DNA of 64,000 nt from an uncultured bacterium. Lineage in GTDB: Bacteria; Lernaellota; Lernaellaia; Lernaellales; Lernaellaceae. The position numbers and the translations under genes are program-made. The stretch covers positions 2,676-66,675 of the forward strand of contig CAZHPN010000005.1 of NCBI GenBank assembly GCA_964534375.1, written 5' to 3'. The notes beneath the pieces were generated by a model that made no database searches, was not told the DNA's origin, and saw only the letters and a list, made by a program, of their open reading frames with translations. This document shows, piece after piece, positions 5,386 to 59,909 of this stretch; within the stretch, counting starts at the first letter, position 1, and each line of letters begins with the position of its first letter.

Positions 5386-7101
5386 ATGAAACGAGCGCAC
5401 TGGTTACTGCCTCTCGGTGTCTTCCTCGTCATACTTGCGTTGAGCGGCGTCAGTCACGCCGGCGTCGCCAGCCTGCACAGCGGCTTCGCGACCTACCAAA
5501 GCAACGAGGGCTGCAGCGGCGACGACGACGACGACAATGACGACAACGACGACGACAACTCCGACGACGACGACAACGACGACAACGACAACGACGACAA
5601 CGACGATAACGACAACGACGACAACGACGATAACGACAACGACGACAACGACGACGACAATGACGCAGCGCCGAATTACTCGCCGAGCGTGAGATTCGGC
5701 GTCACCGACTTCGACTACTACTACGACCTCGGCGGCTACACGGGCGCGGTCTTCTACGCCGACCAACTCTGGGTCGCCAGTCACGTGCAACTTGGCATTA
5801 TCGGCACGTGCGACGACGGCACGCTGCAGACGTGGCAGCAAATCGCCAAGGACAACCCCGTGGGCACGTGGCTCAACTGGCGGCCGCCGCAGGTTTACTA
5901 CACCTACGAAGCCACCGGCACTTGCGCCGCGCCGACAATCGGCCCGCAGTACCCGGATTGGGCGACAGACACCGCGGACTTCAACGGCTTCCTCGCGGCC
6001 TATCCGGAATATGGCGACGGCGAGACCTGCTTCCTGCACGCGCAAAACGACGGCCAAATCCAGGCCACGTGGCAGCCGATGGGCAACTGCCCGATCGTCA
6101 TCCAGCAGCCGGGTTTGGACGGCAGCGCCAACGGCGTGATGAAGGCCGCGCGCATTCAAACCCTCATCTGGGACGGCTACTCGTGGCTGTTCGACATGAA
6201 TTCGGCCTGCGCGCAGCAGTACACCTCATGGCGGACGCTGCAAGATATTCAAACATTGGGCTTCAACGGCGAAGGCTTCGACAATCTCGGCAGCCCGCCC
6301 GAGGACGGCTACAGCATTCCGGTGCTCTTGGACCCGATCAACATCATGGAAATCCCGGCCGATGAACAAACCTCGCAAGCCGGGTTGGACACCTACTGGC
6401 AGAATGCGGTGCACTCGTTCCTGGTGGGCGTCCGCGCCAAAACGGTGGCCGTGGAACCGAACGCCCAGTTCGTCTTCAACGGCGCCAGCTACTGCAGTTG
6501 GAGCGGCTCGAACGCCCGCATCGCCGCCCTGGCGACCGAGGGCGTCGGGGTCTGGTGCGAAGAGGCGCTGACCTACCCGGTGTGGGGCCCGTTCGGCACC
6601 TCCGATCGGCAACAGACGATGATCACGCTCTCCCAGGCGCTGAACGCCGAAGGCAGCTATCTGGCGTTGGAAACGTTTTACAATTCGGGCAACACCAACC
6701 CCGATCCGCCGGAGACCCTGTTCTATCTGGCCGCGTATTACAACTTCAAGAACGGCACGGATGCGTTCATCGTGCGGCCGACCTGGTCCACCTACTCGCC
6801 GATGGAGGACTGCACGTGGTCCGACATCTTCTCGCGCGACATCGGTTCGCCGACCTGTGACTCGACGGCCGGCGCCAACGGCATCTTCACCCGCAGTTAT
6901 CAAAACTCGCAGGGCATGCAGACGTTTGTGCTGGTTCGCGCCGACGGCACGAACGCGACGGTGGACTACACGCTGACGAAAGATTACTGCAGCGTGAACT
7001 CGGACAATTCGCTGACGGCGATGCCGGCGGGGACGATCTCCGTTCCCAGCGGCCTGGGACTCATTCTGATCGTGAATGGCGCCGGCGGTGTGAGCTGCTG
7101 A
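5386..7101 (+). CDS. Secreted hypothetical protein with a 48-residue poly-Asp/Asn linker after the signal peptide
   Basis: ATG 5386 preceded by AAGGAAGG RBS; signal peptide MKRAHWLLPLGVFLVILALSGVSHA; residues ~46-93 are almost pure D/N (DDDDDNDDNDDDNSDDDDNDDNDN...). C-terminal ~470 aa Cys/Trp/Tyr-rich domain of unknown fold. Confidence 0.6.
   Translation: MKRAHWLLPLGVFLVILALSGVSHAGVASLHSGFATYQSNEGCSGDDDDDNDDNDDDNSDDDDNDDNDNDDNDDNDNDDNDDNDNDDNDDDNDAAPNYSPSVRFGVTDFDYYYDLGGYTGAVFYADQLWVASHVQLGIIGTCDDGTLQTWQQIAKDNPVGTWLNWRPPQVYYTYEATGTCAAPTIGPQYPDWATDTADFNGFLAAYPEYGDGETCFLHAQNDGQIQATWQPMGNCPIVIQQPGLDGSANGVMKAARIQTLIWDGYSWLFDMNSACAQQYTSWRTLQDIQTLGFNGEGFDNLGSPPEDGYSIPVLLDPINIMEIPADEQTSQAGLDTYWQNAVHSFLVGVRAKTVAVEPNAQFVFNGASYCSWSGSNARIAALATEGVGVWCEEALTYPVWGPFGTSDRQQTMITLSQALNAEGSYLALETFYNSGNTNPDPPETLFYLAAYYNFKNGTDAFIVRPTWSTYSPMEDCTWSDIFSRDIGSPTCDSTAGANGIFTRSYQNSQGMQTFVLVRADGTNATVDYTLTKDYCSVNSDNSLTAMPAGTISVPSGLGLILIVNGAGGVSC
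5521..5665 (+). repeat. GAC/AAC trinucleotide tandem repeat encoding poly-Asp/Asn
   Basis: ~48 consecutive GAC/GAT/AAC/AAT codons. Confidence 0.9.
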
Positions 7102-7110
7102 TGTTTTGAA

Positions 7111-7141
7111 CACGCGCCGCCGACGCCGTCGGCGGCGCGTG
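7111..7141 (+). terminator. GC-rich perfect hairpin downstream of the 5386..7101 gene (terminator-like, no U-tract)
   Basis: CACGCGCCGCCGACG-C-CGTCGGCGGCGCGTG, 15-nt arms that are perfect reverse complements, 10 nt after the TGA stop. Confidence 0.4.
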
Positions 7142-7359
7142 ACTTGGTCAAGTTGGCTGCGTGGTAGGGGCTCCGCTTCGGTCGATCGGCCGGAACGGGG
7201 CCCCGACGTTTATGGAAATAACGACGCGCGCCCAACTCACGGCGAGAGCGGCTCATCGGCTTGACGCCCTGGTCCCAACCAGCGTATATTTTCCCCGTCG
7301 ATCATGTTTCTTGAAAATGTCGACCGCCTCGGAGAGAGGCGCGACTGGACAAAACGGCA

Positions 7360-7857
7360 ATGAATTGGACCAGCGCAAACTGGCGACGACAAGCGGGCTT
7401 CACGGCGATCGAGGTCGCCGCATCGGTGTTGTTTATCTCGGTGCTGATTGCCGTGCTCGTGAATCGAATTCTCCCCCACGTCCAAAAGCAGATCGATATC
7501 TTGGCGGCGCTCGACCAGATCCGCCAATTGCAAAAACAAGCGATGCTTCATTATCTCGACAAGAATGCGGCGCCGGATGCCACAACCGTGAACGCCTTAT
7601 TCGGCGACGGCGACGAAGGCAAGTCCATCGCCGGTAAGTTCAGGATCTTCCGCGTTTTCAATGACCACTACCCCCCGCAGCAGGCAATCAACGGATACCG
7701 GCCGGAGAACTACATCATTTGCAGCACCTATCCACTCCCCGGCGCGGCATATGTTTATGCGTTGGACGATGTGCCGCCGCAGGTCGCGGCCGCCGGAACC
7801 GATCCCGTGGGCGAACGCCGGTGCGGCACGGACATCGGCCTCGCCGACGCCGAGTGA
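7360..7857 (+). CDS. Type IV pilin / pseudopilin-like protein (prepilin-type N-terminal cleavage-methylation domain)
   Basis: N-term MNWTSANWRRQAGFTAIEVAASVLFISVLIAVLV has the class-III signal G|FTxIE followed by a hydrophobic helix. Confidence 0.6.
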   Translation: MNWTSANWRRQAGFTAIEVAASVLFISVLIAVLVNRILPHVQKQIDILAALDQIRQLQKQAMLHYLDKNAAPDATTVNALFGDGDEGKSIAGKFRIFRVFNDHYPPQQAINGYRPENYIICSTYPLPGAAYVYALDDVPPQVAAAGTDPVGERRCGTDIGLADAE

Positions 7858-7887
7858 GACAAATTTCCGTCGCGGATTGCCGAGCAG

Positions 7888-8397
7888 ATGGCCTGGATTG
7901 AGACGCCTTGGGGGCGGATCGGCGCCCCGGACGATATTCCGCTGGAGTTCGCCTGCGAGCGTTGCGGAACCTGCTGCCGGGCGTTCTTCCTCAGCGTGAC
8001 CGACGAAACGCTTGCCGAGTGGCGCGACCGGCTCGACCGCGGCGACGCGGCCGGCCTGCCGCCGGATCTCGATGCCGTGCTGGAATTGTTCACCCCGCTG
8101 GCCGAGCCGCCGCCGACCCCCGAGGGCTCGTGGTACGCCTGCCGCGCGTTCGACCCGGACCGCAACCTGTGCCGCCTCGTGGCGGAAAATCCGGTCCGGC
8201 GGCCGCAGGCGTGCTTCGCGTTTCCGTATGTCTACGACTGGGCGTCGCTGCACGAGGTTCCGTATCCGAATTGCGGGATCGTGCGGCGCACGGTGCGGCA
8301 TCTGGGCGGCCGGCTCGGGGCGAATTTGGCGAGATCCGTTTTCAACACAAAGGGCACGGAGGAAGACACAGAGAGCACAGAGACTATTGACTATTGA
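7888..8397 (+). CDS. YkgJ/UPF0153-family putative Fe-S/zinc cluster protein
   Basis: CERCGTCCRAFF matches the CxxCxxCC motif of the YkgJ family; 169 aa. Confidence 0.55.
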   Translation: MAWIETPWGRIGAPDDIPLEFACERCGTCCRAFFLSVTDETLAEWRDRLDRGDAAGLPPDLDAVLELFTPLAEPPPTPEGSWYACRAFDPDRNLCRLVAENPVRRPQACFAFPYVYDWASLHEVPYPNCGIVRRTVRHLGGRLGANLARSVFNTKGTEEDTESTETIDY

Positions 8398-8472
8398 TGT
8401 GATATCTGGGGGTTGATTTTTTCAGAGCGAAGACGCCCCTCGACGCCGATCGGGGCAGGCCCCGACCGCCAA

Positions 8473-8504
8473 GCCCGAACCCCGAATCCCGAATCCCGAA
8501 CCCA
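8473..8504. repeat. Short tandem repeat (CCCGAAY heptamers)
   Basis: cccgaaccccgaatcccgaatcccgaaccc in an intergenic region; a related inverted copy lies inside the prophage at 39776..39842. Confidence 0.7.
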
Positions 8505-8570
8505 GTCCTCTACGATCTCTGTGCCTCTGTGGTGAAAAATTATTCTCCGCAGTATAGCTTTTGGCGGCGC

Positions 8571-8915
8571 CTAATTCAGCCGGCGGAAAAATCGCTCGAT
8601 CTGAAACTGCACCGCGCGGGCGCCCTCGGCGGTTGCCGCCATCTCCGCCGGGCGTTGGTTTTCAAGCGCCGGATTCGGCGTGTTCATCCAGGTGGCGGCG
8701 GACGCCGCGGAACCGCCGAAGACCGCGGCGAGCATCTCCAGGCTCTCCAGCGACAATCCGGGGAATTTGATTTTCAGATCCATCAGGGCGTCCTGTCGGA
8801 CGCGCCAACGCGAGTCGTCGTCGCGATAGCGCTCGCCCCGCCGGTCCAGGAACCGTTTGACTTCGAGAAAAAACTCCGCCCGCAGAATGGCGGCGACGGC
8901 CTGCATGCTGGTCAT
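8571..8915 (-). CDS. Hypothetical protein
   Basis: 114-aa ORF with normal composition. The overlapping + strand ORF is Arg-rich and looks like a high-GC artefact. Confidence 0.3.
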   Translation of the reverse strand: MTSMQAVAAILRAEFFLEVKRFLDRRGERYRDDDSRWRVRQDALMDLKIKFPGLSLESLEMLAAVFGGSAASAATWMNTPNPALENQRPAEMAATAEGARAVQFQIERFFRRLN

Positions 8916-8995
8916 GGATCCTCTCCCTCTCCTCGCTCGTTCTCAATGTAACCCCGAATCCAGGCCAATGCGGCGCGGCGAAGCCGCCGGGATCG

Positions 8996-10681: not shown

Positions 10682-10701
10682 CGGCCCGCGAGGAAGTTGC
10701 C

Positions 10702-13130: not shown

Positions 13131-13300
13131 TGTTAACGCGCACGGGATATGCAAAAAGCGGCACAACCCGCAACAACGCGGGATAGCCCGAAAAACAAAC
13201 GACTAATTGCAGCGACGGGAGCGCCGGGCGTTTCATGAGGTTTGCAAAAAACGCGGAGCAAACGGCCCGGGCGGAGCATGTGGTTTGAAAAAACGGCGGG
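13131..13300. repeat. Left end: terminal inverted repeat plus 4 subterminal direct repeats (putative transposase-binding sites)
   Basis: GGGATATGCAAAAAGCGG, GGGATAGCCCGAAAAACAAACG, GGTTTGCAAAAAACGCGG, GGTTTGAAAAAACGGCGG. Their reverse complements occur at the right end. Confidence 0.65.
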
Positions 13301-15143: not shown

Positions 15144-15150
15144 TTTTATG

Positions 15151-29354: not shown

Positions 29355-31856
29355 GTGTCGCAGCTCGTCGACCAGTTCGGGCAGCCGATCAAACCGGCGC
29401 AACTGACCGCGCCGATGCGGCCGGACCAGACGCTGACGACGCAGCGCCGTTTGTGGCGGCAGGCGACGATCGAGCCGACGGAAGTTTTCAACGCGGTCAT
29501 GCGCGCGGAAATCGGCGAGACCGTTTATCTGCAAGACCTGTTGTTCCGCATTTCCTTCGATTCGCGCGTTACCTCCGACAGCGAAAAACGGGTCGGCAAG
29601 CTCGAGCTGGTCGATTTCGGCGTGAGCCCGTTCGAGACGCCGGCGGACCCGGCGAACGATCGCGAGCAGATGATCGCGGATTTCTGCGCCGAGGCGATCG
29701 ATCGCATTCCGAATTTCGGCGGCGCCCGGGCGCACCTGGGCGGCGGGCGGCTCTATGGCTGGCGCGTTTGCGAAATGCGGTGGGACCATCGCACGAGCAA
29801 GGGCACGAAATGGCTGCTGCCCGTCGAGCTGCGCGAACGCCGCACGCGCGATTTCCGGCCGAACCCTGCCGATCATTCGCAGTTCCAACGCTGGGTCGGC
29901 CTCGGCTCGCAGATCGTCGAAAATCAAAAGCCGTTGAACCCGCAGACGTTCGGTTGGGCGCCGCTCGAACCGGCGCGGTATCTGGTCAACTGGTTCACCA
30001 ACGATGGGTCGGCCATGCTCGCCGGCCTTTATATCAAGCTGGTTTTCCCGGTGCTCGCGATCAATTGGACGCTGACGCAGTGGGGCGAACTGCTCGAATT
30101 GTTCGGCAAGGGCTCGGCCGATGTCACCTATGACGCGGTGAAAGGCGGCGAGCAAAACACGGCCAATGCCATCGCCGAAGGCAGCGGCACGCCGCTTTGG
30201 ACCGCGATGAATTCGGCATATTCGATCAAGCGCGAAATCATGACCGGCCGCGCGACCCACGCCGACTTTCACGACCGTGCGAAAAAAGCCGTCAGCGAAG
30301 TGCTGCTCGGCTCGCAACTGACGACGGACCAGGGCACGGTCGGCAGCCAGGCGCTCGGCAACGTGCATGCGCAGGAACTCGACGATCTGCGGGCGCGCGA
30401 CGCCAAGCACCTGGCCGAATGCTGCCTGACCGAGCAACTCGTCAAGGCGATCGTCATTATCAATTTCGGGCCGCAAGAGCGGTATCCCTATGCCTGGCTG
30501 AATTATAAAAAACCGGCCGACCTCAAGCTCGAAATGGCGACCGATACCGGTCTGCATCAGATTGGCGTGCCCCTGTCGAAATCCGACACGTACCAGCGCT
30601 ACAACCGGCAGCCGCCGAGCGGGCCGGACGACACGCTGGCGCCGGGCAATAATACCAATGCGGCTGCGGCTGCGGCTGCGGAAAACAATGGGGGCGCGGG
30701 CGGACAGACCTTTGTCGCCCGACCCGCGCCCCGCCGATTCTCCGCCGGCAACGACGGCGGCGGCGACGGCGACACGGCGGCGCCCGACGAAATTCTCGCC
30801 CTCGATGCGCGCCTGCAATCCGAGGCAATCGCGGCGATCGAGGACGCGCCGTCGCTGACCGCGGCCGAAGCGGCGCTACGCGACCTGATGGCGGCCGTCG
30901 AAATCTCTCACACCGGCCGCGTCGCCTACGAGCTTTACCGCGTGCAGGCGCTGGCGCATTTGGCCGGCATTTGGTCGGACATGCGCGACCACGGCGAGAC
31001 GCCGGCGAGGCCGCGCAGCGCGCTATGGCTGCCCCACCGCGCGCGCCTGGCGCGTCTCTGCAAGCTCGGCGATCTGCGGGCTGACGGCCTCGCCTCCGTA
31101 AGCGGACGCGCGTTTGCAACCGTCATCGACGAATGGGCCGACGTGCCGATGCAAGAGGCAATCGATTACTTCGAGCGCAAGGGCATCGTGTCGGCCGACG
31201 AATGGGCCGCGCTCGATGATGCCTACAAACATCGGGGCTTTTTTGCCGCGAAAATCGGTACGGGCGAAGAATTAAAGACCGCTTATGACGCCATTAACAA
31301 CGCTTTAAAAACCGGGGCGGCGCGCGATAGCGTCGTGCGCGATCTGCGCGCGAAACTCGCCAATCCGCCCTCAACATCCTATTTGCGATTTTTGTTCGAT
31401 GAAAACGTCGGCACGGCGCAGGCGTTCGGCCGCTATGCCCGGCAGGAAAAAACCAAGGCCGACCGTCCCTACGGCCGTTACGTGACGATGGGCGACGGCC
31501 GCGTGCGCGCGCGGCACGCCGCGGCGCATGGCGTCGTCAAGCATTTGGATCATCCCTGGTGGCAGCGCAACACGCCAAAAAACGGCTACCGCTGCCGCTG
31601 CGAGAGGAACACCTACACGGCCGCCGATCTGGCCGCGCATGGTTGGTCCGAAACGCCGGGCACGCCGCCGGACGTTTGCGATCCGGGCTTCATGCACACG
31701 ATGAGCGCGGCGGCCGGCGCCGACGAACGCTTGAACGCGCTGGTCGCGCAGTCGCACGAAGACGGCCTGCTCAGCGGTTATGACGTTCCCGCGATTATCA
31801 CATTCGGTTCGGACAAAGGCCGGCCGATCATCGTCGGACAAAGGAAGGCGCAATGA
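29355..31856 (+). CDS. Portal protein (DUF935-like) fused to a Mu-F-like head-morphogenesis domain
   Basis: 833 aa. The C-terminal RVRARHAAAHGVVKHLDHPWWQRNTPKNGYRCRCER matches the Phage_Mu_F signature (RvR..H..dG ... GCRCr). The N-terminal ~520 aa is of portal size and position. Confidence 0.75.
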   Translation: MSQLVDQFGQPIKPAQLTAPMRPDQTLTTQRRLWRQATIEPTEVFNAVMRAEIGETVYLQDLLFRISFDSRVTSDSEKRVGKLELVDFGVSPFETPADPANDREQMIADFCAEAIDRIPNFGGARAHLGGGRLYGWRVCEMRWDHRTSKGTKWLLPVELRERRTRDFRPNPADHSQFQRWVGLGSQIVENQKPLNPQTFGWAPLEPARYLVNWFTNDGSAMLAGLYIKLVFPVLAINWTLTQWGELLELFGKGSADVTYDAVKGGEQNTANAIAEGSGTPLWTAMNSAYSIKREIMTGRATHADFHDRAKKAVSEVLLGSQLTTDQGTVGSQALGNVHAQELDDLRARDAKHLAECCLTEQLVKAIVIINFGPQERYPYAWLNYKKPADLKLEMATDTGLHQIGVPLSKSDTYQRYNRQPPSGPDDTLAPGNNTNAAAAAAAENNGGAGGQTFVARPAPRRFSAGNDGGGDGDTAAPDEILALDARLQSEAIAAIEDAPSLTAAEAALRDLMAAVEISHTGRVAYELYRVQALAHLAGIWSDMRDHGETPARPRSALWLPHRARLARLCKLGDLRADGLASVSGRAFATVIDEWADVPMQEAIDYFERKGIVSADEWAALDDAYKHRGFFAAKIGTGEELKTAYDAINNALKTGAARDSVVRDLRAKLANPPSTSYLRFLFDENVGTAQAFGRYARQEKTKADRPYGRYVTMGDGRVRARHAAAHGVVKHLDHPWWQRNTPKNGYRCRCERNTYTAADLAAHGWSETPGTPPDVCDPGFMHTMSAAAGADERLNALVAQSHEDGLLSGYDVPAIITFGSDKGRPIIVGQRKAQ

Positions 31857-33895: not shown

Positions 33896-34360
33896 ATGAA
33901 AAACCTAACCTTGATTCTTTCGGTTTTCGCGCTGCTCGTCGCCGGGGCGATCGCGGCTCTCGATTGGCCATCGCCGGCGAACGCCGTGCAGACCGCCCCG
34001 CAGATCGACCATAGCGTCAACTTGCAGGTCGGCGGCAGCGTGCGGCTCGATTACGCGACCGCCTCGACGCCGCCGCTGATCGACGCGGGCAACCAACTGG
34101 TCTCCGGCGGCTTCTACGTTCGTTCGGCCAGCACGGCGACCTGCGCGAGCGTGTGTTCGCCCGGAATTTGCGCGTTCGGCCAGGTCACTTCGACGACTCT
34201 CCTGGCCGCCTGTTCGGCAAGCATCAGCGGTTCGTGCGTCTGCCTGACGACAACCGGCGACGACGACAACGACGATAACGACGACAACGACAATGACGAC
34301 AACGATAACGACGATAACGATAACGACGACAACAACGACAACGACGGTTCGCCCGCGTAA
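33896..34360 (+). CDS. Secreted Cys-rich small protein with C-terminal poly-Asp/Asn tail (moron inside the head module)
   Basis: Sec signal peptide MKNLTLILSVFALLVAGAIAALDWPSPANA; 9 Cys; C-terminal DDDNDDNDDNDNDDNDNDDNDNDDNNDND. Confidence 0.5.
   Translation: MKNLTLILSVFALLVAGAIAALDWPSPANAVQTAPQIDHSVNLQVGGSVRLDYATASTPPLIDAGNQLVSGGFYVRSASTATCASVCSPGICAFGQVTSTTLLAACSASISGSCVCLTTTGDDDNDDNDDNDNDDNDNDDNDNDDNNDNDGSPA
34259..34345 (+). repeat. GAC/AAC trinucleotide tandem repeat (poly-Asp/Asn)
   Basis: ~29 consecutive GAC/GAT/AAC/AAT codons. Confidence 0.9.
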
Positions 34361-39320: not shown

Positions 39321-39767
39321 ATGACGACGCTCATTCTCGCGATTTTGTTCGGCCTGATGGCATACGCCGTCGGCATCACCGCGATCGAGGTGCCGCTCGC
39401 CGGCATCTACATCATGAAAATCGAAGGGTTCCCGGTGCTCGAACAGGTGAGCTTCAACATCGACGGCCACGACCAGGTGGTTGCCGAGGATCTGCTCATG
39501 GGCGTCGGGACATCGCTGACGTTCGGCGCGGGCTCGGGTTCGATCGAAACGAAAGAACCGCAAGCGCAATTGATCCCCTGGGAAAGCATGAACGGCCAAC
39601 CGCCGATGAACAACGTGGCGGCGTCCTTCGAGCCGATCGCCGGCATCGGCAGCTGCTTCGACTTGCAGAACTTCTACGTCATCAATTGTGCGACGTTCCG
39701 TCAGGACAAAAAGGCGGCGCTCAGTCGCCCCATCAAAATCGGCTGGGCCTCGCTCACGCCGCGGTAA
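39321..39767 (+). CDS. Tail tube protein (Mu gpM-like)
   Basis: 148 aa immediately after the sheath gene. Confidence 0.55.
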   Translation: MTTLILAILFGLMAYAVGITAIEVPLAGIYIMKIEGFPVLEQVSFNIDGHDQVVAEDLLMGVGTSLTFGAGSGSIETKEPQAQLIPWESMNGQPPMNNVAASFEPIAGIGSCFDLQNFYVINCATFRQDKKAALSRPIKIGWASLTPR

Positions 39768-39775
39768 CAACCAAC

Positions 39776-39842
39776 GGGATTCGGGGCTCGGGATTCGGCT
39801 GCGGCCTCCCGGACCCCGGACCCCGAAACCCGGAACCCGAGG
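39776..39842. repeat. Short tandem repeats (GGGATTC and CCCGRAM heptamers)
   Basis: gggattcggggctcgggattcgg ... ccggaccccggaccccgaaacccggaacccga; related to the host repeat at 8473..8504. Confidence 0.7.
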
Positions 39843-39850
39843 GGGAAATC

Positions 39851-40228
39851 ATGGCAACCATCAACGACGCGGACATCGTCCGCAAAATGCGCGAACTGAC
39901 CGAGCCGTTCACGCTCACCGGCGGCGTCCTGATCGCCGGCAACGTCTTTCGCACGGGCACGATGCGTATCCTCACCGGCCACATTCAGTCGGAAGTGACC
40001 GCCCAAAATCCCAAAAACGCCGACGAAGAAGCCGCGATGCTGATCGCCAAACGCATCACGCTCGACGGCCTCGATCCGAAAGCGCTCACGCACACCGCCA
40101 TTCTCGAGCTGCCGTCGTTCGATCGCGGCGAACTCGATATGGCCGCGGGGAGATTGTACGAAAAGTACAGCACCTTTCGTGACAAGCAACCTGCGACCGC
40201 GGCTGCAAACGGCGGGAAGACTGGCTAG
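39851..40228 (+). CDS. Tail assembly chaperone candidate (tape-measure chaperone position)
   Basis: 125 aa between tube and tape measure; a 120-nt gap before the TMP gene could accommodate a frameshifted extension. Confidence 0.45.
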   Translation: MATINDADIVRKMRELTEPFTLTGGVLIAGNVFRTGTMRILTGHIQSEVTAQNPKNADEEAAMLIAKRITLDGLDPKALTHTAILELPSFDRGELDMAAGRLYEKYSTFRDKQPATAAANGGKTG

Positions 40229-50844: not shown

Positions 50845-51333
50845 CTAGCCCGGAGTGCAGTCCGACGGCGGCCCGGCAATGCCTTCTTGCACCAACGCGA
50901 CAAAACAATTGCTCATAATCTGGCAACTGGAACCGGCGTAATAAATGCACTGTCCGAGCTGCTGCGTCACGCCATACGGAACTTGGTTGTTTTCGCAAGC
51001 CGAAACGAACTGGGCCTCGGTGCAGCCGACGATCCCGAGGCCGCATTTCGTGCAGAAAGCGTCGTAGAGGGATTGGCAGGTCGGTCCGCTGTCGTCGTCA
51101 TCGTCGTCGTTGTCGTCATTGTCATCATCATCGTCGTCGTCATCGGCCGCATCGTTATCGTCGTCGGCCGCATCGTCGTCGATCGTAGCGTCATCATCGG
51201 CGGTCGGCGAGCCGTCGTCGTCGGCGGCGACGTAAATGTTATTCGTGGTCTTGGCGCCGGGAGCGCACGTCGCCAGGAGCAAGAGGCAGCCGGCCAGGAG
51301 CAAGGACGCGATCGCGACAGTCAGGGCCTTCAT
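50845..51333 (-). CDS. Prophage-encoded secreted Cys-rich lipoprotein with poly-Asp linker (moron)
   Basis: Lipobox LLAGC, then a D-rich stretch ADDDGSPTADDDATIDDDAADDDNDAADDDDDDDDNDDNDDDDDD, then a C-terminal domain with 12 Cys. Convergent with the fibre gene. Confidence 0.5.
   Translation of the reverse strand: MKALTVAIASLLLAGCLLLLATCAPGAKTTNNIYVAADDDGSPTADDDATIDDDAADDDNDAADDDDDDDDNDDNDDDDDDSGPTCQSLYDAFCTKCGLGIVGCTEAQFVSACENNQVPYGVTQQLGQCIYYAGSSCQIMSNCFVALVQEGIAGPPSDCTPG
51091..51225 (-). repeat. GAC-rich trinucleotide repeat tract (poly-Asp)
   Basis: gtcgtcgtcatcgtcgtc... on the + strand. Confidence 0.85.
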
Positions 51334-51449
51334 CTCAATCTCCCATTTTCAAACGTGATGAGCGGATTCTCCCGCCGCAGGCAGAAGAATGTCAAGGGCG
51401 GTATTCACGGGCGTTCGCGCGAATTCGTGATTTTAAAAAGGAGTCCTAA

Positions 51450-52299: not shown

Positions 52300-53040
52300 A
52301 TGGTCAAACGCGATGATCTTTTCGAAGTCGCCGGCGTGTGCGGCGGTAAAGCACGGGCCTGTCTGGGTTTGGTGCGAAGAGCCCCAAAGCCGCGGCTCGG
52401 TCTCGTCACGGCCGGCGCGGCCGCATCGCCGCAGGTAAATATCGTGGCCCACATTGGCGCGGAATTGGGTCTGCCGGTGCGGGCGCACGTGCCGAAAACG
52501 AAGGTACTGTCGCCGGAAATTGCGGCGGCGAAGGCCCGCGGTGCGGAGATCATTCAGCACGCGCCTGGCTACAACACCGTGATCGTCGCGCGCTGCCGCG
52601 CCGACGCTCGCGCTCGGGGCTGGATCGAGATCCCATTCGGCATGGAGTGCCCCGAGGCCGTCATACAGACGTGGCAGCAGGCGGCGCTGCTGCCCTGGGG
52701 CCAATTCAAACGGATCGTCATGCCCTGCGGCTCGGGAATGAGCCTCGCCGGCGTCCTCTGGGCCCTGAAAGAATCGGGATGCAGAACGCCGGTGATTGCG
52801 GTGCGTGTCGGCGCGGACCCGAGCAAGCGGCTCGATGAGTACGCGCCGGATGAATGGCGGGCGATGGTTCAGATCGTCGATTCGGGAACGGGCTACAAAA
52901 TGGCCGCAGAAACGCAATGGAACGGAATCACCCTCGATCCGCACTATGAAGCAAAGGCGGCGAGGTTCGTGCAGCCGGACGATCTTTTTTGGATCGTCGG
53001 GCTGCGGCAGACGGTTAAGCGCTCTTTAACAACTGAATAA
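52300..53040 (+). CDS. Compact PLP-dependent fold-type-II enzyme, D-cysteine desulfhydrase / ACC deaminase-like
   Basis: VKRDDLFEVAGVCGGKARACLGLV...LGLVTAGAAASPQVNIVAHIGAELGL aligns with DcyD [22 protein letters not shown] ... [24 protein letters not shown], including the PLP lysine. 246 aa versus ~330 typical. The in-frame upstream peptide ...PTPIEHVAGV continues the homology but has no start codon. Confidence 0.6.
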   Translation: MVKRDDLFEVAGVCGGKARACLGLVRRAPKPRLGLVTAGAAASPQVNIVAHIGAELGLPVRAHVPKTKVLSPEIAAAKARGAEIIQHAPGYNTVIVARCRADARARGWIEIPFGMECPEAVIQTWQQAALLPWGQFKRIVMPCGSGMSLAGVLWALKESGCRTPVIAVRVGADPSKRLDEYAPDEWRAMVQIVDSGTGYKMAAETQWNGITLDPHYEAKAARFVQPDDLFWIVGLRQTVKRSLTTE

Positions 53041-53063
53041 TGACGGTTTTTTAGGTGTAAAAA

Positions 53064-53082
53064 CGCCCCGAAAAAAAGGGGC
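53064..53082. terminator. Hairpin CGCCCC-gaaaaaaa-GGGGC with flanking T/A runs (bidirectional terminator-like)
   Basis: 25 nt after the PLP-enzyme stop. Confidence 0.3.
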
Positions 53083-53196
53083 AGAGTTGGCATGTTAGCG
53101 CATGCCGAACCGACGACGCTTGCACGTCGCCCCGACGAAGCCGGCTGCCCCTAGCGAGAACACAGGCATTCTAGCCGGCGAAAAAGGGATGACAAG

Positions 53197-54099
53197 ATGC
53201 AGTCTTCATTGCGTGATTCGTTCATCGTGCCGCCGTTCAGCGTTCTGGATGCGCGGCAGGGTTATTGGCAGGAGCGGAAACGGCGCTGGCTCGAGCTGAT
53301 CGGCGAAATGCGGCCGACGTGCCCGCAGCCGCTGTTTCACGACGTTTCGATCGGCGGGAAAACCAAGAAGATCAAGGACGGCAAAAACCTCTCGATTTTC
53401 GACCCGGTTCTTGCCGAAGTGCTTTTGCATTGGTTCTGCCCCGTCGCCGGCGACGTGTTCGATCCGTTCGGCGGCGAGGCGGTCAAGGGCATCGTGGCGG
53501 CGACGTGCGGCCGGCAATATTTCGGCGTCGAAATTCGGCCGGCGCAGGTCTGGGAAAATCGGCGCATCGCCAAGCGTCTCGGCGCGACGCGTTGCACCTG
53601 GTTGATCGGAGACGCCGGCAAGCTCGCCGCGCTCGTGGCGGCGCAGCGGACCTTCGATTTTGTGTTTTCTTCACCGCCATATTGGAACCTCGAACGCTAC
53701 CGCGGGCCGCGCGGCGATCTCTCCGAGGCGCGCGATTACGGGTCATTCCTGGCCGCCTTTGAGCGCATCGTTTGCCTCTCGGCCGAGCGGCTGCGGCCCG
53801 GCCGGTTCATGGCGATCAAGGTCGGGAATTTCCGCGATCGCCGCGGGGCGCTGATCGATTTTGTGGGCGACACGGCGCGTTGCGGCGCGGCGGCCGGCCT
53901 GGCGTTCTACAACCAATACGTTCTCGCCGGCGTGAATGGCGCCGCGCCGCTGCGAGGACGCGGCATGATGCGCACGCGCAAATGCGCCCCGACCCATCAG
54001 GCGGTGCTGGTCTTTTTCAAGGGCAACCCGCGCGAGTTCGATCGGCGCGCGTTCCCGGAGATCAAGAGATACGATGATCCGCTTCCGGCTGCGGAATAA
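53197..54099 (+). CDS. DNA methyltransferase-like protein (motif I FDPFGGE, motif IV SSPPYW; N6-A / N4-C class)
   Basis: 300 aa. An AdoMet-binding FxGxG-type motif is followed ~85 aa later by an S-P-P-Y catalytic motif. Confidence 0.6.
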   Translation: MQSSLRDSFIVPPFSVLDARQGYWQERKRRWLELIGEMRPTCPQPLFHDVSIGGKTKKIKDGKNLSIFDPVLAEVLLHWFCPVAGDVFDPFGGEAVKGIVAATCGRQYFGVEIRPAQVWENRRIAKRLGATRCTWLIGDAGKLAALVAAQRTFDFVFSSPPYWNLERYRGPRGDLSEARDYGSFLAAFERIVCLSAERLRPGRFMAIKVGNFRDRRGALIDFVGDTARCGAAAGLAFYNQYVLAGVNGAAPLRGRGMMRTRKCAPTHQAVLVFFKGNPREFDRRAFPEIKRYDDPLPAAE

Positions 54100-54625: not shown

Positions 54626-54740
54626 AAAACGGTTGCTAAACGGCCATAAAACGCTGTTTAGAAAGCCGTGAAGAGTGAGTCAAAATTCTGACAGCGGCCG
54701 ATTCGTAGGAGAACCGGTCGCTATTTGTGCGCCTGGAGTG

Positions 54741-54796
54741 CGTTTTCTTTTTGCAAACCAAATGCACATTTTTTTCAAACCGCACGCGCGTCAACA
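54741..54796. repeat. Right end: terminal inverted repeat plus two subterminal repeats (putative transposase-binding sites)
   Basis: cgttttctttttgcaaacc and catttttttcaaaccgcacgcgcgtcaaca are reverse complements of the GGTTTGCAAAAA... sites at the left end. Confidence 0.65.
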
Positions 54797-54801
54797 ACAG
54801 A
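54797..54801. repeat. Right target-site duplication ACAGA
   Basis: Identical to 13126..13130. Confidence 0.7.
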
Positions 54802-54894
54802 GATCCGGGATCGGTCGCCGACTCGACTATTCGCGAGCAAGTGGTCCGGAGGGTAAGAATGTGTCCTTTTCTCGGGGCAGGGCGAAAATATGTC

Positions 54895-54980
54895 TTGACA
54901 ACCCGGGGGTCCTTTCCGACTAGGATGGACAGGATCGGCAACCGTCATCTCCTGTCAATCCGGCAAATCCTGTAAATCTT
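54895..54980. promoter_or_regulatory. Regulatory/repeat element: TTGACA box, then the 18-mer AGGATGGACAGGATCGGC, then AATCCTG-type direct repeats
   Basis: The 18-mer is 18/18 identical to the inverted copy at 60079..60096. Contains ...CCTGTCAATCCGGCAAATCCTGTAAATCTTGATAAG. Confidence 0.4.
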
Positions 54981-54999
54981 GATAAGAAATCGTACTTGT

Positions 55000-56454
55000 C
55001 TACGCCGGCGAATTGCTCTCTTGTTTCCGCCGCAGGAGCCGGGAGATGACCCGCCGCTCCTGATCGGTCAGGGCGCGGAAGAGGAACAACACGGCGAAAT
55101 AAACGACGCCGCCTGCCACGATCACGAGGGCGAGATTCATCGTGCGCATCGCCCAGGCGACGGCGGCCAGCGCCAGCGCCGCGGGGATCGCGCGCACGGG
55201 GAACATTTCGTGCGGCAGGCTGCCGTACTCGCGCAGGAACACACGCAGGAAATAGATCAGCAGGAACACTTCGGAGGCGATGGTCGCCGCCGCCGCGCCC
55301 CAATAGCTGTATTTCGGAATCAGCGCGAAATCCACGGCGAGGTTGACCAACATCGCGTAAACGTTGGCGCGCAGCACGTCGCTCAGGCGGTTGGCGGCCG
55401 TCAGCGCCCACCCGAAGGTCATCGTGCCGAACCAGAGCCAGAGGAAGCTGCCCAGCAAGGCCAGCACGCGCGCGCCGTGAGCGTACTTGGCGCCGTAGAC
55501 CAGCTCGACGAGGCGCGGACCGACGATCATGCTGCCGATCGACACCGGCAGGGCGATGATCCAGAAGATGCGCAACGACGAGCCGAGCAGCGAGTTCCAC
55601 TGCTCGTGCGACTCGGCGCGCGCCGCGGACAGCGCCGGGAAGAGCGCCCGGGTCGCCAGCACCGGCAGGGTCAGCAGCAACTCGAAGAACGAGTAACCGC
55701 TGCGATAGAGGCCGGCGCTGCGATCGTCGGTCAGGCGTTCGAGGATCACCATGTCCACGCGGAAGGCGACGATCCAGACGAAGCCGATCATCACGAACGG
55801 CACGGCGCGGCGGAGCATCGCCCAGCCGCCGGCGACCCCCGGCCAGAACGACACGCCCGGCAGCCGCGTGTGCGCGATCCAGGTGTTGAAGAACGCGGAA
55901 AACCACGCGGTGATCACCATCGCGGCCACCACGCCCATGACGCCCAGATGCAGCGCGGCGGCGATCGCGACGCCGACCAGCCAAGCGCCCGAGCGGATGA
56001 TCGTCACCCACGCGGACAGGTCCATGCGTTGGACGCCGTCGAACATCGCCTCGCCCGTGTGCGCGACGGCGTCGCCCCACACGAACAGCGCCGAGAGCAT
56101 CACCACTTGGCGCGTCGCGCCGCTGTACCCCATCGCCCGCGCGAAAACATACATCGCCAACGTCGCGAAAACGCCGAGGATCATGCGCATGCCGAGGGTG
56201 GTCTTAAACAGCCGGCCGCTCGCCTCCGGTTCCGCCCGCACCGCCGCCACCTCGCGCACGAGCAGCGGCGACATGCCAAAGCCGGCGAGCACCGAGAAGA
56301 TCGCCGCCAGGCTGTTCGCCAGCCCGTAGCGGCCGAAATCGTCGACCAACAAAGTACGTGCGATCAACGCTTGGATGAGAAAACCGACCAGCCGGCGGGA
56401 ACCTTCGGCGCCGAGCAGCCACATGCTGTTTTTCGCGACGCGCGCTCCGCTCAT
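55000..56454 (-). CDS. Polysaccharide biosynthesis protein / Wzx-like flippase (MOP superfamily)
   Basis: 484 aa with ~12-14 TM helices; N-terminal SMWLLGAEGSRRLVGFLIQALIARTLLVDDFGRYGLANSL matches the Polysacc_synt signature. Confidence 0.7.
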   Translation of the reverse strand: MSGARVAKNSMWLLGAEGSRRLVGFLIQALIARTLLVDDFGRYGLANSLAAIFSVLAGFGMSPLLVREVAAVRAEPEASGRLFKTTLGMRMILGVFATLAMYVFARAMGYSGATRQVVMLSALFVWGDAVAHTGEAMFDGVQRMDLSAWVTIIRSGAWLVGVAIAAALHLGVMGVVAAMVITAWFSAFFNTWIAHTRLPGVSFWPGVAGGWAMLRRAVPFVMIGFVWIVAFRVDMVILERLTDDRSAGLYRSGYSFFELLLTLPVLATRALFPALSAARAESHEQWNSLLGSSLRIFWIIALPVSIGSMIVGPRLVELVYGAKYAHGARVLALLGSFLWLWFGTMTFGWALTAANRLSDVLRANVYAMLVNLAVDFALIPKYSYWGAAAATIASEVFLLIYFLRVFLREYGSLPHEMFPVRAIPAALALAAVAWAMRTMNLALVIVAGGVVYFAVLFLFRALTDQERRVISRLLRRKQESNSPA

Positions 56455-56625
56455 GCGTTCCTCACGTAAGGTTCCCTTATCGTAACCATGACCCTCGCCG
56501 GCTTCACGAAGTTAATGCCGGGCGCCCGCGCCTCGCCAAACGTCGTCCGCCGGATCGATCAACGTGGCGCTAGTCTGGCAAATGCGGCGGTTCCTGGCAA
56601 GACGACGCCGCGGCGTTCGGGGCGT

Positions 56626-57570
56626 TCAATCGAGCGAAGCAGCGCCGGGAACGGGCGCCGCGGCGGGAAGCTTCAATTTCATGCCGATCCCGGCGAGGAT
56701 GGCCGGAAGCAGGACCGGGAGCAGCTCGGTGTAAATCCGTAGTTCGAAAATCTTGGCGAATTGGATTTCGGTGACGATGAAAAAACCGAGCGTCGACGCC
56801 AGGAGGATCTGCAACTCCCGGCCGATCCGCCCGAAGCCGACGATGGCGATCACCCACATGCCGCCGAAGGCCATCGACGCCTTGAACAGTTGCGACGGCT
56901 GCAGATTGAACGACAACATGTCGTAGCCGTTGCCGTGCAAATGGAAATAATGCTTCAAGGCGATGCGGCTCGCGACCCAGAACGCCGCCGACAGCGCGAC
57001 GACCGCTTCGCCGCGCCATCTTTTTGCCGATGACCACCAGAGGATGGCGGCCCCGGGCAAAATGATCGCGCACGTCTCGCGATTCAACGTCGCCAGGGCG
57101 AACACGAAAACGAACGCGACGTAGGATCTTTTCAGGACGCAGACGCACAGGGCGATCATGAACAGCGTTCCGGCCGCGTCGCTCATTTGCAGAATCGTGT
57201 GCCACTTGATCACGAGCGCCGCGAACAGCACGCCGAAACACGCCGCCGTTTCGTCAAAGAGCAACGACAGGTGCCGGAAGAGAAACCACAGCGTAAAAAA
57301 CATGCACAGGCCGACGTACACCCGCGCCGCATGCTCGATCCCGCCCGCGTTGTCGCCGATGTAATGCGACTGCATCAACCCGAGGATCGCCAGCGGCGAC
57401 AGCATCCGGATTTGGTAGGGCATGATCGATGCGCCCTCGAGGCACTCGTTCAGGCGGTACGGCGGGTGCAGCGCCGTGCCGAAGGCGATGTCGAAGGCCG
57501 CCAACAGACAGCACGCGACGACAAAGACCAGGAACAGCAAACGCGCTGTCTTTTGGCTATTCATCGTCAA
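56626..57570 (-). CDS. Integral membrane protein of unknown function
   Basis: 314 aa, ~8-9 TM helices; 8 nt downstream of the GH92 gene, so in the same operon. Confidence 0.55.
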   Translation of the reverse strand: MTMNSQKTARLLFLVFVVACCLLAAFDIAFGTALHPPYRLNECLEGASIMPYQIRMLSPLAILGLMQSHYIGDNAGGIEHAARVYVGLCMFFTLWFLFRHLSLLFDETAACFGVLFAALVIKWHTILQMSDAAGTLFMIALCVCVLKRSYVAFVFVFALATLNRETCAIILPGAAILWWSSAKRWRGEAVVALSAAFWVASRIALKHYFHLHGNGYDMLSFNLQPSQLFKASMAFGGMWVIAIVGFGRIGRELQILLASTLGFFIVTEIQFAKIFELRIYTELLPVLLPAILAGIGMKLKLPAAAPVPGAASLD

Positions 57571-57578
57571 CCCCTAAA

Positions 57579-59909
57579 CTAGCGCTGCTGCGGCATCGGC
57601 CCCATGACGAACTCCAGCGTCCCGCCGTTGGCGATTTGGTCATGCGTGAAGAACGGCGTCGTCAGCGCTTGGCCGTTGAGCGTCGCCGACTGCACGTAGA
57701 CGTTGTACGGCCCGTTGTTGACGACGGTGATCTTCAGGTCGCCGTTCGGCAGGTGCATGACCGCGCCGTCGAAGACCGGGCTGCCGAGCACGTACTGCAC
57801 CGAGCCGGCCCGCGGGAAAAAGCCCAGCGCCGAGAAGATGTAAAAGGCGGACATCGTGCCGGCGTCGTCGTTGCCCGGCAGGCCGCCGGGAAAATCGCGA
57901 TACTTGTGGAACATCGCCCAGCGGATCCACTTCTGCGTCAGGTCGGGACGGCCGGCCGCGGCGAAGATATAGGGATGGAACAGGCTCGGCTCGTTGCCCA
58001 GCCACAGGTACGCGCCCGGCGCCCAATCGAATTCCGCATACGCCACGTTCATCTCGAACGCGTAGTTCAGTTTGTCGGTCAGCGCCGTGGGCGAGCCGAA
58101 CAGTTGCGCCAGGCCCGCGACGTCATGCGGCGCAAAGAAAGTGTAATGCCAGGCGTCGCCCTCGGTGTAATACTCGTCGAACGGAAAGGCCGGGTAAAAC
58201 GGCGAGACCCACGAACCGTCGGAGAGGCGCGGCCGCAGGAAGCCGGTCGTCGCATCCCAGTAGTTGCGGTAGTTATGGCTGCGGGCGAGGAACATCGCCG
58301 CGTCGTCCGGCTTGTTCATCGCCGCCGCCCACGCCGAGAGCGCCGAGTCGTCGTAAGAGTATTCCGTCGTGTAGCTCAGGCCCTTTTGCTCGACGTCGGC
58401 CGGAATGTAGCCGAGCGTCAGGTACGATTCGAGTCCGTCGCGGCCGTCGTTGGGCGCCGGTCCCGTCGCGTGGGCGTAGCAGCCTTCGTAGGCTTTGTCG
58501 TAATCGAAATCGCGAATGCCCTTCAGATAGGCGTCGGCCAGCACGATGTCCGCGCTCGTGCCGTCCATGCAATCGGTGTAGGCGATGGCCGCCGGCCATT
58601 TGGGCATCGAGCCGCCCTGCTCGTACATCAGCGTCAGCGACTGCATGAAATCCGCGGTGCGCACGGGGTCGAGCAGGGTCAGCAGCGGATGGAACGTGCG
58701 GAAGGTGTCCCACAGCGACATATCGGTGTAGTACTGGCGCCCGGCGGAATCGTGGGTCTTTTCGTCGAACCCGAGGTACTGGTTGTTGGTCTCCGTCCAA
58801 TCGTGCGGCATGAGGCCGGCGTGGTAGAGCGCCGTATAGAAAACGCGGCGATCCGACAGCGAGCCGCCGCTCACGTCGATCTTGCCGAGGTATTGCCGCC
58901 AGGCGTTGCGCGTGGCGTTCATCATGCCCTCGAAATCCCAACTCGGCGCCTGCGCGGCCAGGTTTGCCTGCGCCTGCGCGACGCTTTGAAAGCTGATGCC
59001 GACCCGGATCAGCAACGGCTGGCCGCCGGCCGCGAAGCCGAGATAGGCGCCGACGTTCGCACCCTGCGCCGTCGCGCTGTTGTCGGTCGGCTGGCCGTTG
59101 GTCCACGTGCCGTAGGCCGTGAACGGCTGCGAGAATTGCATGGCGTAATAGACGTTCGTGCCGCCCGGATGCGCGCCGGTCAATTCGCCGGAAAAATTGC
59201 TCATGCCGGAGACCGTCTGGCTCGCCGCGTCGATGGCAACCGTGGCGTTGCTAACCCAATTGGGCTGGATCGAATACGACGGGTCCACCACGACGTACGG
59301 TTCGCCGCCGCCCTGCCACCTGTAGCGGTGCATCGCCGCCCAGTAGGTCGCGGTCAGTTCGGCGAAGACCTGCGGCTCGTCGAGCAGCACGCTGTAATAG
59401 CCCGCCTTCGCCGTTTCGTTGGCGTGGGAGAACGTGCTGCGGAAGGTCGGCTCGCCGATCGGCGCGGCCGGCTTCGCGTTCATCGGCATGACCAGGATGT
59501 TGCCGTAATCGGAGCACCCGGTGCCCTGCATGTGGGTGTGCGTAAAGCCGCGGATTTGGGGGTCCGCATAGTAGTACCCAGCGCAATGCATCATGTCGAG
59601 CGCGAGGCCGTCGAGCGTCGTATCCGGGCTGAGGCCGACCATACCGAACGGCGCGCTCGGCCCCGGATAGCACGAGGCGGCGCCGAGGCCGAAACTGCCC
59701 GTGCCGATCAGCGGATCGACGTAGTCGACGATGTCGACGGGCGACGAATCGTCGTCGGCCGGCGAGGCATCGTCATCGACCGGCGAAGCATCGTCGTCGT
59801 CGTTCGCGGGCGTGACGTCGTCATCGTCGCCGCCCTTGCCGCAGGCCGTGAACAAGAAGGCAAAAACCGCCAGGGAAATCATCAAGAGCCAAAAGACACG
59901 TTGCCGCAT
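57579..59909 (-). CDS. Glycoside hydrolase family 92 (alpha-mannosidase) lipoprotein with N-terminal poly-Asp linker
   Basis: Lipobox LFTAC; D-rich linker GKGGDDDDVTPANDDDDASPVDDDASPADDDSSPVD; the GH92 N-terminal signature DYVDPLIGT; 776 aa. Confidence 0.75.
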   Translation of the reverse strand: MRQRVFWLLMISLAVFAFLFTACGKGGDDDDVTPANDDDDASPVDDDASPADDDSSPVDIVDYVDPLIGTGSFGLGAASCYPGPSAPFGMVGLSPDTTLDGLALDMMHCAGYYYADPQIRGFTHTHMQGTGCSDYGNILVMPMNAKPAAPIGEPTFRSTFSHANETAKAGYYSVLLDEPQVFAELTATYWAAMHRYRWQGGGEPYVVVDPSYSIQPNWVSNATVAIDAASQTVSGMSNFSGELTGAHPGGTNVYYAMQFSQPFTAYGTWTNGQPTDNSATAQGANVGAYLGFAAGGQPLLIRVGISFQSVAQAQANLAAQAPSWDFEGMMNATRNAWRQYLGKIDVSGGSLSDRRVFYTALYHAGLMPHDWTETNNQYLGFDEKTHDSAGRQYYTDMSLWDTFRTFHPLLTLLDPVRTADFMQSLTLMYEQGGSMPKWPAAIAYTDCMDGTSADIVLADAYLKGIRDFDYDKAYEGCYAHATGPAPNDGRDGLESYLTLGYIPADVEQKGLSYTTEYSYDDSALSAWAAAMNKPDDAAMFLARSHNYRNYWDATTGFLRPRLSDGSWVSPFYPAFPFDEYYTEGDAWHYTFFAPHDVAGLAQLFGSPTALTDKLNYAFEMNVAYAEFDWAPGAYLWLGNEPSLFHPYIFAAAGRPDLTQKWIRWAMFHKYRDFPGGLPGNDDAGTMSAFYIFSALGFFPRAGSVQYVLGSPVFDGAVMHLPNGDLKITVVNNGPYNVYVQSATLNGQALTTPFFTHDQIANGGTLEFVMGPMPQQR
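59746..59835 (-). repeat. GAC-rich repeat tract (poly-Asp linker of GH92)
   Basis: gtcgtcggcc ... atcgtcgtcgtcgtt on the + strand. Confidence 0.8.

Follow-up and report, generated by a model that had tools for sequence, protein, structure and literature searches.

Why should several exported proteins encoded within one stretch of a bacterial genome, two of them by a prophage, carry long runs of little other than aspartate and asparagine? The question arises from a 64,000-nt stretch of DNA from an uncultured bacterium (NCBI GenBank assembly GCA_964534375.1, contig CAZHPN010000005.1, positions 2,676 to 66,675 of the forward strand; hereafter the window), in which a first-pass annotation had noticed Asp/Asn (D/N) tracts in four genes. 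We analyzed the four proteins together with their relatives and with comparable tracts in genomes, metagenomes and viral contigs. The reading that we favor, with a probability of about 0.72, is that the tracts form an intrinsically disordered, polyanionic tether or linker of extracytoplasmic proteins which is typical of the group sampled here, namely high-GC bacteria related to or resembling Candidatus Lernaellota, some of them labelled 'Myxococcales' at NCBI. This reading is based on the position of the tracts, the unrelated passengers that follow them, their use between domains, a hypervariable length combined with a constrained composition, and modelled disorder. The linker is a new composition of a familiar disordered linker, a curiosity and not a new mechanism.

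All four open reading frames (ORFs) are present in the window and look coding, with GC contents at third codon positions (GC3) of 0.76-0.88 (window GC 63.5%). Protein 1 (5386-7101, forward strand) is a 571-aa exported protein without an assigned family, in which a Sec-type signal peptide lacking a lipobox is followed by the D/N tract and a conserved domain of about 475 aa; its tract (5521-5664, forward) consists of 48 codons, 33 for Asp, 14 for Asn and 1 for Ser, and includes about three perfect copies of a 24-nt unit in a 71-nt perfect run. Protein 2 (33896-34360, forward) is a 154-aa ORFan of the prophage head-gene operon; its Sec-type signal peptide leads into a Cys-rich middle, and its C-terminus carries a D/N tail of 29 codons (34259-34345, forward; 18 Asp, 11 Asn), after which come only GSPA and the stop codon. 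Protein 3 (50845-51333, reverse strand) is a 162-aa prophage-encoded lipoprotein, probably a moron, that joins a lipobox, a D-rich linker and a four-helix domain with six cysteines (6-Cys domain). Its linker (residues 38-81; 51091-51222, reverse) is 44 residues long and is interrupted by A, T, G, S, P and I. The fourth protein is a 776-aa lipoprotein of glycoside hydrolase (GH) family 92 (57579-59909, reverse), with catalytic domains assigned by Pfam (Glyco_hydro_92N, E = 1.8e-66; Glyco_hydro_92, E = 1.7e-162) and by TIGR01180 (578 bits). Its D-rich linker, DDDDVTPANDDDDASPVDDDASPADDDSSP (residues 28-57; 59739-59828, reverse), is of a DDDxSP flavor derived from a 21-nt repeat, and holds 14 Asp and one Asn in about 30 residues with three DDD(D)-x-S/T-P repeats. 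Proteins 1-3 match no Pfam, PHROG or NCBIfam family beyond low-complexity noise.

The tracts had been described as four nearly pure D/N runs of 30-50 residues. This holds for proteins 1 (48 residues) and 2 (29 residues), but not for protein 3, whose pure D/N core is only 18 residues long, nor for GH92 with its DDDxSP repeats. A six-frame scan of the window for segments with at least 10 D or N in 15 residues uncovered exactly three, at 5503-5682 (forward), 34244-34357 (forward) and 51076-51198 (reverse), and the pattern (RAY)n over 18 codons has 30 matches in the window against none in 100 shuffles. The two flavors are nonetheless concatenated in many of the related proteins discussed below (L104, L114, L204, P0022 and P0030 among them), and the GH92 segment is therefore placed in the same linker class. 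A poly-Val/Ile ORF on the reverse strand at 5404-6159 was rejected as coding, being the mirror of the protein 1 tract.

Lipoboxes and signal peptides were called by regular expression and hydropathy, a lipobox being a positively charged n-region and a hydrophobic h-region followed by [LVI][ASTVI][GAS]C, no further than about 35 residues from the start. By these rules only protein 3 (LLAGC at Cys16 or LATC at Cys23) and GH92 (FTAC at Cys23) are lipoproteins. Protein 1 has no lipobox, its first Cys being residue 43, far from the h-region, and none was found in protein 2, where the signal peptide ends ANA/VQ. It had been claimed that three of the tracts come immediately after the signal peptide or lipobox, which is a loose description: the tract of protein 1 begins about 20 residues past the likely signal peptidase I site, and the first DDD stands 15 residues after Cys23 in protein 3 and 5 residues after it in GH92. 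The fourth tract is C-terminal, as described, and ends four residues before the stop of protein 2.

What varies and what is kept can be seen most directly in protein 1. Its four orthologues (P0002-P0005), 45-56% identical in the alignment, all have a lipobox, and the only hypervariable part among them is the stretch from the signal peptide to a conserved 'SPSxxFGV' motif, from which the sequence onward is conserved. That stretch contains a bare DDD in P0002 and P0003 and about 40-50 D/N-rich residues in P0004, P0005 and the window protein. Compared with the orthologues, the window protein has lost the lipobox Cys and has about 20 extra residues (VSHAGVASLHSGFATYQSNEG) ahead of the tract, in the region 5386-5520; it appears, from this comparison, to be a lipoprotein turned into a soluble or differently anchored exported protein.

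Six further proteins, unrelated to protein 1, were drawn in by the same search solely because of the tract, and all six combine a lipobox, a long D/N tract and a passenger of a different kind: an FGE-sulfatase domain, a GH5 cellulase (Candidatus Lernaella stagnicola), a GH67-like protein, and 'VWG..DVFAVG'-repeat proteins, one of them from 'Myxococcales bacterium GX444'. At the Lernaella GH5 locus, two neighboring arylsulfotransferase lipoproteins begin C-GDDDDDN... and C-DDDGDD..., and GH92, the 6-Cys domain and domains without an assigned function are further unrelated passengers behind D-rich segments. In metagenome contigs, at least 120 stretches match the string DDNDDNDNDD, and 14 among the matches listed come from the metagenome Ga0181520, whose identifier adjoins those of two metagenomes that hold the phage of the window. 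Their arrangement was surveyed in an examined subset of matches on contigs with a GC content of at least 50%. Where the GC content was about 60% or higher, most had a lipobox, a D/N segment with or without DDDxSP units and then a domain; a segment between domains (L163, L167); or a segment before a short C-terminal end (L103, L157, L166, L201). Interdomain segments are likewise present in P0022 and P0031.

Among 27 lipoproteins of this kind, the linker has a median length of 51 aa (range 0-90, shortest non-zero 18) and a composition of 50% D, 14% N, 13% S+T, 7% A, 6% G, 4% P, 1% K+R and 0.3% E. In the sampled loci, a linker is present in 11 of 18 candidate lipoproteins recognized by a simple lipobox heuristic. 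Asp is one third-position transversion away from Glu, and Ala, which is also reached by transversion, attains 7%. Since Glu is nearly absent despite this mutational access, we infer selection for Asp itself and not for negative charge in general; the share of GAT among the Asp codons of the protein 3 and GH92 tracts, which matches that of the genome, points the same way.

Structural models agree with a flexible segment. In the AlphaFold2 (AF2) model of protein 3, the 6-Cys domain folds into four helices with a predicted local distance difference test (pLDDT) score of 80-87, and the linker is coil at 40-57. The AF2 model of protein 1, built on an alignment of five sequences, has an overall pLDDT of 47, with residues 18-186 below 50, and is too poor for a fold search. 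Coil or low pLDDT in the models thus occurs together with a variable sequence, a conserved composition and a length that differs among orthologues, as is expected of a disordered linker.

From these features we infer a spacer role, disorder in vivo and cation binding, in the following way. The two flavors, (D/N)n and DDD-x-S/T-P repeats, often joined, would constitute a habitual linker vocabulary, placed so as to connect a lipidated Cys, or a signal peptide, to the folded passenger, and used also between domains or as a C-terminal tail. Tracts would arise, lengthen and shorten through in-frame gain and loss of GAC/AAC units of 9, 15, 21 and 24 nt, and selection would keep composition and not sequence, with Asp far ahead of Asn, Ser/Thr next, and Glu, Lys and Arg almost nil. 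The charged and extended tether may hold enzymes and binding domains off the membrane; fully extended, 50-90 residues would reach very roughly 15-30 nm. Binding of divalent cations would be a likely side property.

Lipoproteins are well known for disordered N-terminal linkers (El Rayes et al., bioRxiv 10.1101/2021.01.05.425367), in which an unstructured segment likewise directly follows the lipidated Cys and precedes the folded domain, and in which length and disorder matter and sequence does not. The linkers described here differ from these in their extreme composition, their length of often 50-90 residues, their generation from repeats, their additional interdomain and C-terminal positions, and their occurrence in organisms unrelated to E. 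coli. Secreted glycoside hydrolases carry Pro/Thr-rich 'PT' linkers between their domains. These are similarly flexible, biased and repeat-derived, differ in length from one orthologue to another and connect catalytic with accessory domains, and the S/T-P of the DDDxSP units recalls PT boxes, but the segments in this group are acidic and based on Asp/Asn instead of Pro/Thr, and no sign that they are glycosylated was found.

To what extent is the linker particular to this group? In 596 Gb of species-representative genomes, DDNDDNDNDD occurs in 46 stretches from many phyla, at mixed positions that include C-terminal tails, mid-protein segments and a few post-lipobox sites. Viral contigs contain 44 stretches, mostly in metagenome-assembled genomes (MAGs) of AT-rich giant viruses, and none of the 44 is a credible lipoprotein linker. 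The window alone has the string in two genes. A search of a 5.8-billion-protein database with the tract alone yielded nothing useful, because correction for composition bias strips such matches. Sporadic D/N tracts are not unique to the group; their routine use as a linker of exported proteins, judged from these sequences and within our sampling, seems particular to it. The first-pass annotation had held that tracts common in many phyla at no conserved position would speak against its proposal of a lineage-specific export or anchoring convention. That description applies to the sporadic background only and not to the recurrent architecture, which is found again in Lernaella, in GX444 and in the sibling metagenomes. 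The proposal itself survives in part: the recurrence is no coincidence, but the segments also stand between domains, at C-termini and on two proteins that are not lipoproteins.

The composition stands apart from that found in a published survey of low-complexity regions (LCRs). Asn is strongly under-represented in prokaryotic LCRs, in which Asp averages 6%, and the most LCR-enriched bacteria surveyed are the myxobacteria, whose LCRs are rich in Gly with Asp second (PMC6821194). The acidic LCRs of myxobacteria and haloarchaea resemble the present tracts as a clade-specific acidic excess, but here Asn is the second residue, Gly and Glu are minor, and an association with lipoboxes is absent from that survey (PMC6821194). 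Two Myxococcota-labelled MAGs (L053, L080) and a further high-GC contig (L199) have the D/N pattern beside G/D-, K-rich or D/A/G-rich stretches. We found no earlier description of Asp/Asn lipoprotein linkers in the open-access literature; the paper describing Lernaellota does not mention linkers, and depicts an outer membrane and many glycoside hydrolases with signal peptides. An unrelated AT-rich case was seen in four GTDB contigs labelled Muribaculaceae (L062, L081, L087, L090; GC 23-26%, which looks odd for the label), whose proteins end in C-terminal D/N tails of 50-72 residues and are related to one another through a repeated 'Y-E-V/I-E-F...D...TG' module.

Two of the four genes, those of proteins 2 and 3, do lie inside a Mu-like prophage, as had been reported. 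This element occupies about 41.5 kb (13239-54781, forward strand), with approximate ends that are bracketed by inverted 12-mers. It has the components of a Mu-like transposable prophage, that is, a transposase, a MuB-like ATPase, Mu head genes and end repeats: Pfam matches comprise Mu-transpos_C, AAA_22 (MuB-like), Portal_Mu, Phage_Mu_F, Mu-like_Pro (protease I) and Mu-like_gpT, with an rve match (E = 3.6e-4) below its Pfam cutoff, and PHROG matches identify head and baseplate genes. The 12-mer GGTTTG(C/A)AAAAA is present in two copies near each end, in inverted orientation, at 13239-13293 and 54748-54781, and these copies are plausible MuA-binding sites by sequence. Contigs recovered from other samples break off at about 54.5 kb.

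The gene for protein 3 is oriented on the strand opposite the phage late genes, between a gene of the tail-fiber region and a lysozyme-like gene. Upstream of it is a sigma-70-like promoter (TTGACA-18-GAGAAT, 51366-51395, reverse; 10 of 12 matches), and its ribosome-binding site is GGGAGA. The 6-Cys domain (50848-51090, reverse; C-x3-Y-x6-C-x15-21-C-x15-C-x7-9-C-x5-C) has no Pfam, NCBIfam or PDB fold match and is common to P0009, P0022, P0028, P0029 and P0031. The domain, about 65-70 aa long, occurs in lipoproteins of several builds: small ones (P0028, P0029), one of tandem-domain type (P0022) and large multidomain ones (P0031, P0009). In all six members examined it lies behind a D-rich linker, with a classical lipobox in five and a non-canonical LPAC in P0009. 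IMG/VR has no relatives of protein 3 or of the major head protein of the phage. Because protein 3 combines its own promoter and an opposite orientation with a host-type 6-Cys family, it has the classic layout of a moron and is best read, on sequence features, as one captured together with its linker from the gene pool of such bacteria. A role in envelope modification or superinfection exclusion is a guess. An o-spanin was considered and rejected, given the strand opposite the lysozyme-like gene, the separate promoter and the host-type homologues. The recurrence in host and phage genes does not need a separate phage convention, and protein 3 is directly explained. In the head operon, the gene for protein 2 is flanked by those for a PHROG 1731 structural protein and gpT, and protein 2 has no homologue among 5.8 billion proteins; for it we can offer only the general point that phage proteins must pass through the host export machinery.

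Alternative explanations start from the repeats themselves. Tandem Repeats Finder units of 3, 6, 9, 15, 21 and 24 nt cover the tracts, all inside the ORFs, and the units are all multiples of three, so slippage alters length and not expression. The suggestion that the trinucleotide repeats may change length is borne out by an orthologue of protein 1 that is 88% identical (L194, from Ga0181520): the 24-nt, 8-codon unit is perfectly repeated about three times in the window and at least 4.5 times in L194, with perfect runs of 71 nt (the longest in the window) and 107 nt, respectively, and this difference in copy number is direct evidence of in-frame gain or loss of units. It might then be supposed that the repeats exist to produce rapid length variants and so to evade phages or predators, in the manner of the size-variable lipoproteins Vlp and Vsp of Mycoplasma, which are likewise lipoproteins with in-frame tandem repeats of changing copy number. 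The tandem units of 9-24 nt, the long perfect runs, the unequal copy number and the contigs broken within tracts (L145 and L194) would all fit, but we consider such a contingency function quite improbable. No repeat in any tract has the non-triplet unit or promoter location that on/off phase variation would involve, and most tracts are degenerate, with 67-88% matches for the units of 9, 15, 21 and 24 nt. Six assemblies (from three JGI metagenomes and three ENA assemblies) agree exactly in protein 3, and a second assembly has the same protein 1, the window sequence being carried by the 143-kb JGI contig Ga0455670_0000859. A comparison of tract length across these two to six copies, which the first-pass annotation had suggested, returned a single length, and the copies are clonal (99.98-100% identity) and therefore uninformative on the rate of slippage. 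The Mycoplasma proteins have longer peptide units and vary at high frequency within clonal populations, whereas variation here is seen solely between diverged orthologues. The share of GAT among Asp codons in the tracts of protein 3 and GH92, about 33%, equals the genome value, which indicates that these two tracts are not young. The same data bear on the thought that the tracts might be misassemblies or not truly coding. Repeats of low complexity do invite misassembly, and the contig of L194, which starts within the repeat, is a warning that such tracts break assemblies; it is one of the two related contigs that end in tracts. An artefact is nevertheless extremely improbable, for independent assemblies and samples give the same sequence, the tracts keep the reading frame from the signal peptide to the conserved domain, with alignment to orthologues on both sides, GC3 is high, and the longest perfect repeat of 71 nt is shorter than 141, the assembly k-mer as we take it from the ENA contig names (k141_...).

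Other alternatives assign the tracts a specific task. Poly-Asp/Asn could bind Ca2+, Mg2+ or other metals with low affinity and high capacity, and so act as an ion buffer or as a bridge to anionic envelope or extracellular polymers or to mineral or organic surfaces. The specific use of Asp and the near-total exclusion of the mutationally accessible Glu favor this idea, and C-terminal tails such as that of protein 2 fit sticky ends better than spacers. In classical Ca2+ loops the monodentate ligands are supplied by D, N, S and T, and the poly-Asp tails of calsequestrin and of shell-matrix proteins are Ca2+ binders. Calsequestrin, Aspein and Asprich share with the present tracts long, near-pure Asp runs broken by small polar residues, but they are proteins of eukaryotes whose Ca2+ or mineral roles have been demonstrated, whereas binding by the bacterial tracts is putative. 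Acidic charge clusters have also been cited as coordinating Ca, Mg and Zn (PMC6821194). Proteins 1-3 match none of the Ca2+-binding families EF-hand, RTX, TSP3 and Excalibur in Pfam or NCBIfam, and a regular DxDxDG or GGxGxD register is absent. Cation retention as the function proper is a tentative and rather unlikely explanation; judged from the sequences, it would be compatible with a linker and does not exclude one. An acidic segment after the lipidated Cys could instead be a sorting code that acts like the lipoprotein export signal (LES) of Bacteroidota and sends lipoproteins, mostly polysaccharide-degrading enzymes, to the surface or to vesicles, with the phage lipoprotein using it too. 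The LES consists of K-(D/E)2, or of a polar residue and at least two acidic ones, at about +2 to +6 after the lipidated Cys, is position-dependent, and reads SDDDD in B. fragilis (PMC5080379). There is a likeness in the acidic run soon after the Cys and in the many glycan-degrading enzymes concerned. A D run falls within +1 to +5 of the Cys in 8 or 9 of the 27 lipoproteins (C-DDDDD, C-G-DDDDD, C-G-N-G-DDDDD; some read C-(G/S)-DDDD), the passengers include GH92, GH5, GH67-like proteins, arylsulfotransferases and FGE-sulfatase-like domains, and among the D-less lipoproteins of the sampled loci are a lipocalin and a Sel1-repeat protein, besides others without an assigned function. In the remainder of the 27, however, the first DDD begins at +7 to +17, mostly +9 to +17; protein 3 has it at +15, and GH92 reads C-G-K-G-G-D-D-D-D, with K at +2 (+3 if the Cys is counted as +1) and acidic residues from +5. 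The LES takes some 4-5 residues and a few suffice for a signal, whereas these runs extend over tens of residues, up to 50-90; tracts also stand between domains, at C-termini and on the non-lipoproteins 1 and 2; and the organisms belong to a different phylum. A sorting code is accordingly unlikely. We hold in similarly low regard a combination of these ideas, in which the Asp/Asn tether would be an envelope-addressing code of Lernaellota-type bacteria: a Glu-excluding polyanion after the lipobox would route lipoproteins to the surface or hold them in the envelope or extracellular matrix through divalent-cation bridges, and phages would have co-opted it to bring a lysogeny-expressed protein 3 and a secreted late protein 2 into the host envelope.

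The disordered tether remains our preferred reading, and several points weigh against it. The avoidance of Glu is stricter than a charged spacer needs, and hints at metal binding, at low helix propensity at acid pH or at a recognition code. The census of lipoproteins is small and heuristic, and part of it was gathered starting from genes with tracts; the assignment of the window to the group is indirect, resting on the names of 47%-identity homologues and on tract-only matches. Disorder, length requirement, localization and metal binding are read from sequence and predicted models. Finally, protein 2 keeps its tail unexplained by gene capture, because it is an ORFan.

If the tether reading is correct, a candidate phylum of which little is known, or its relatives, would have their own 'linker dialect' for exported proteins, and D-rich linkers could flag extracytoplasmic proteins and domain boundaries in the MAGs of this group. 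The linkers would also account for contig breaks and for spurious low-complexity homology matches, and they may aid in linking phages to hosts, since the gene for protein 3 combines the linker style and the domain family of such contigs. The preference for Asp and not Glu poses a clean puzzle on polyanionic tethers, to which metal binding, recognition and a disordered state at low pH are candidate answers.

Several further observations concern the surroundings of these genes. Directly downstream of GH92 are a multi-pass membrane protein (56626-57570, reverse) with a weak PMT_2 (protein mannosyltransferase-like) match below its curated cutoff, and a Polysacc_synt flippase (55000-56454, reverse). 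Given the PMT_2-like neighbor, O-glycosylation at the S/T-P sites of the DDDxSP units is a possibility suggested by the sequence. Within the prophage, the Portal_Mu protein and a Mu F-like head morphogenesis protein are seemingly fused in a single 833-aa ORF (29355-31856), and the right arm (52300-54099) contains a truncated-looking PALP (threonine dehydratase-like) gene and an N6_N4 DNA methylase-like gene. Two overlapping ORFs (39321-40228) precede the likely tape-measure gene, the usual site of tail-chaperone frameshift genes; the second of them includes 4.6 copies of a 7-nt repeat, CCCGGAA (39808-39839), and similar 7-nt repeats are found at 8474, 19404, 24620, 43808 and 45471. The four Ga0181520 proteins with C-terminal segments (L103, L157, L166, L201) consist of repeated Cys-rich modules of the 'C-P-N-G-C-C' type followed by long D/N and DDDxSP segments, and they end ...GGCGC or ...GGCGR directly before the stop, which from the sequences may be an unrecognized C-terminal motif. 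Near the end of the window, a Sel1-repeat lipoprotein (62313-63455) lacks a D-rich linker and has a 108-nt tandem repeat of 3.1 copies (62762-63100) that corresponds to its Sel1 repeats.

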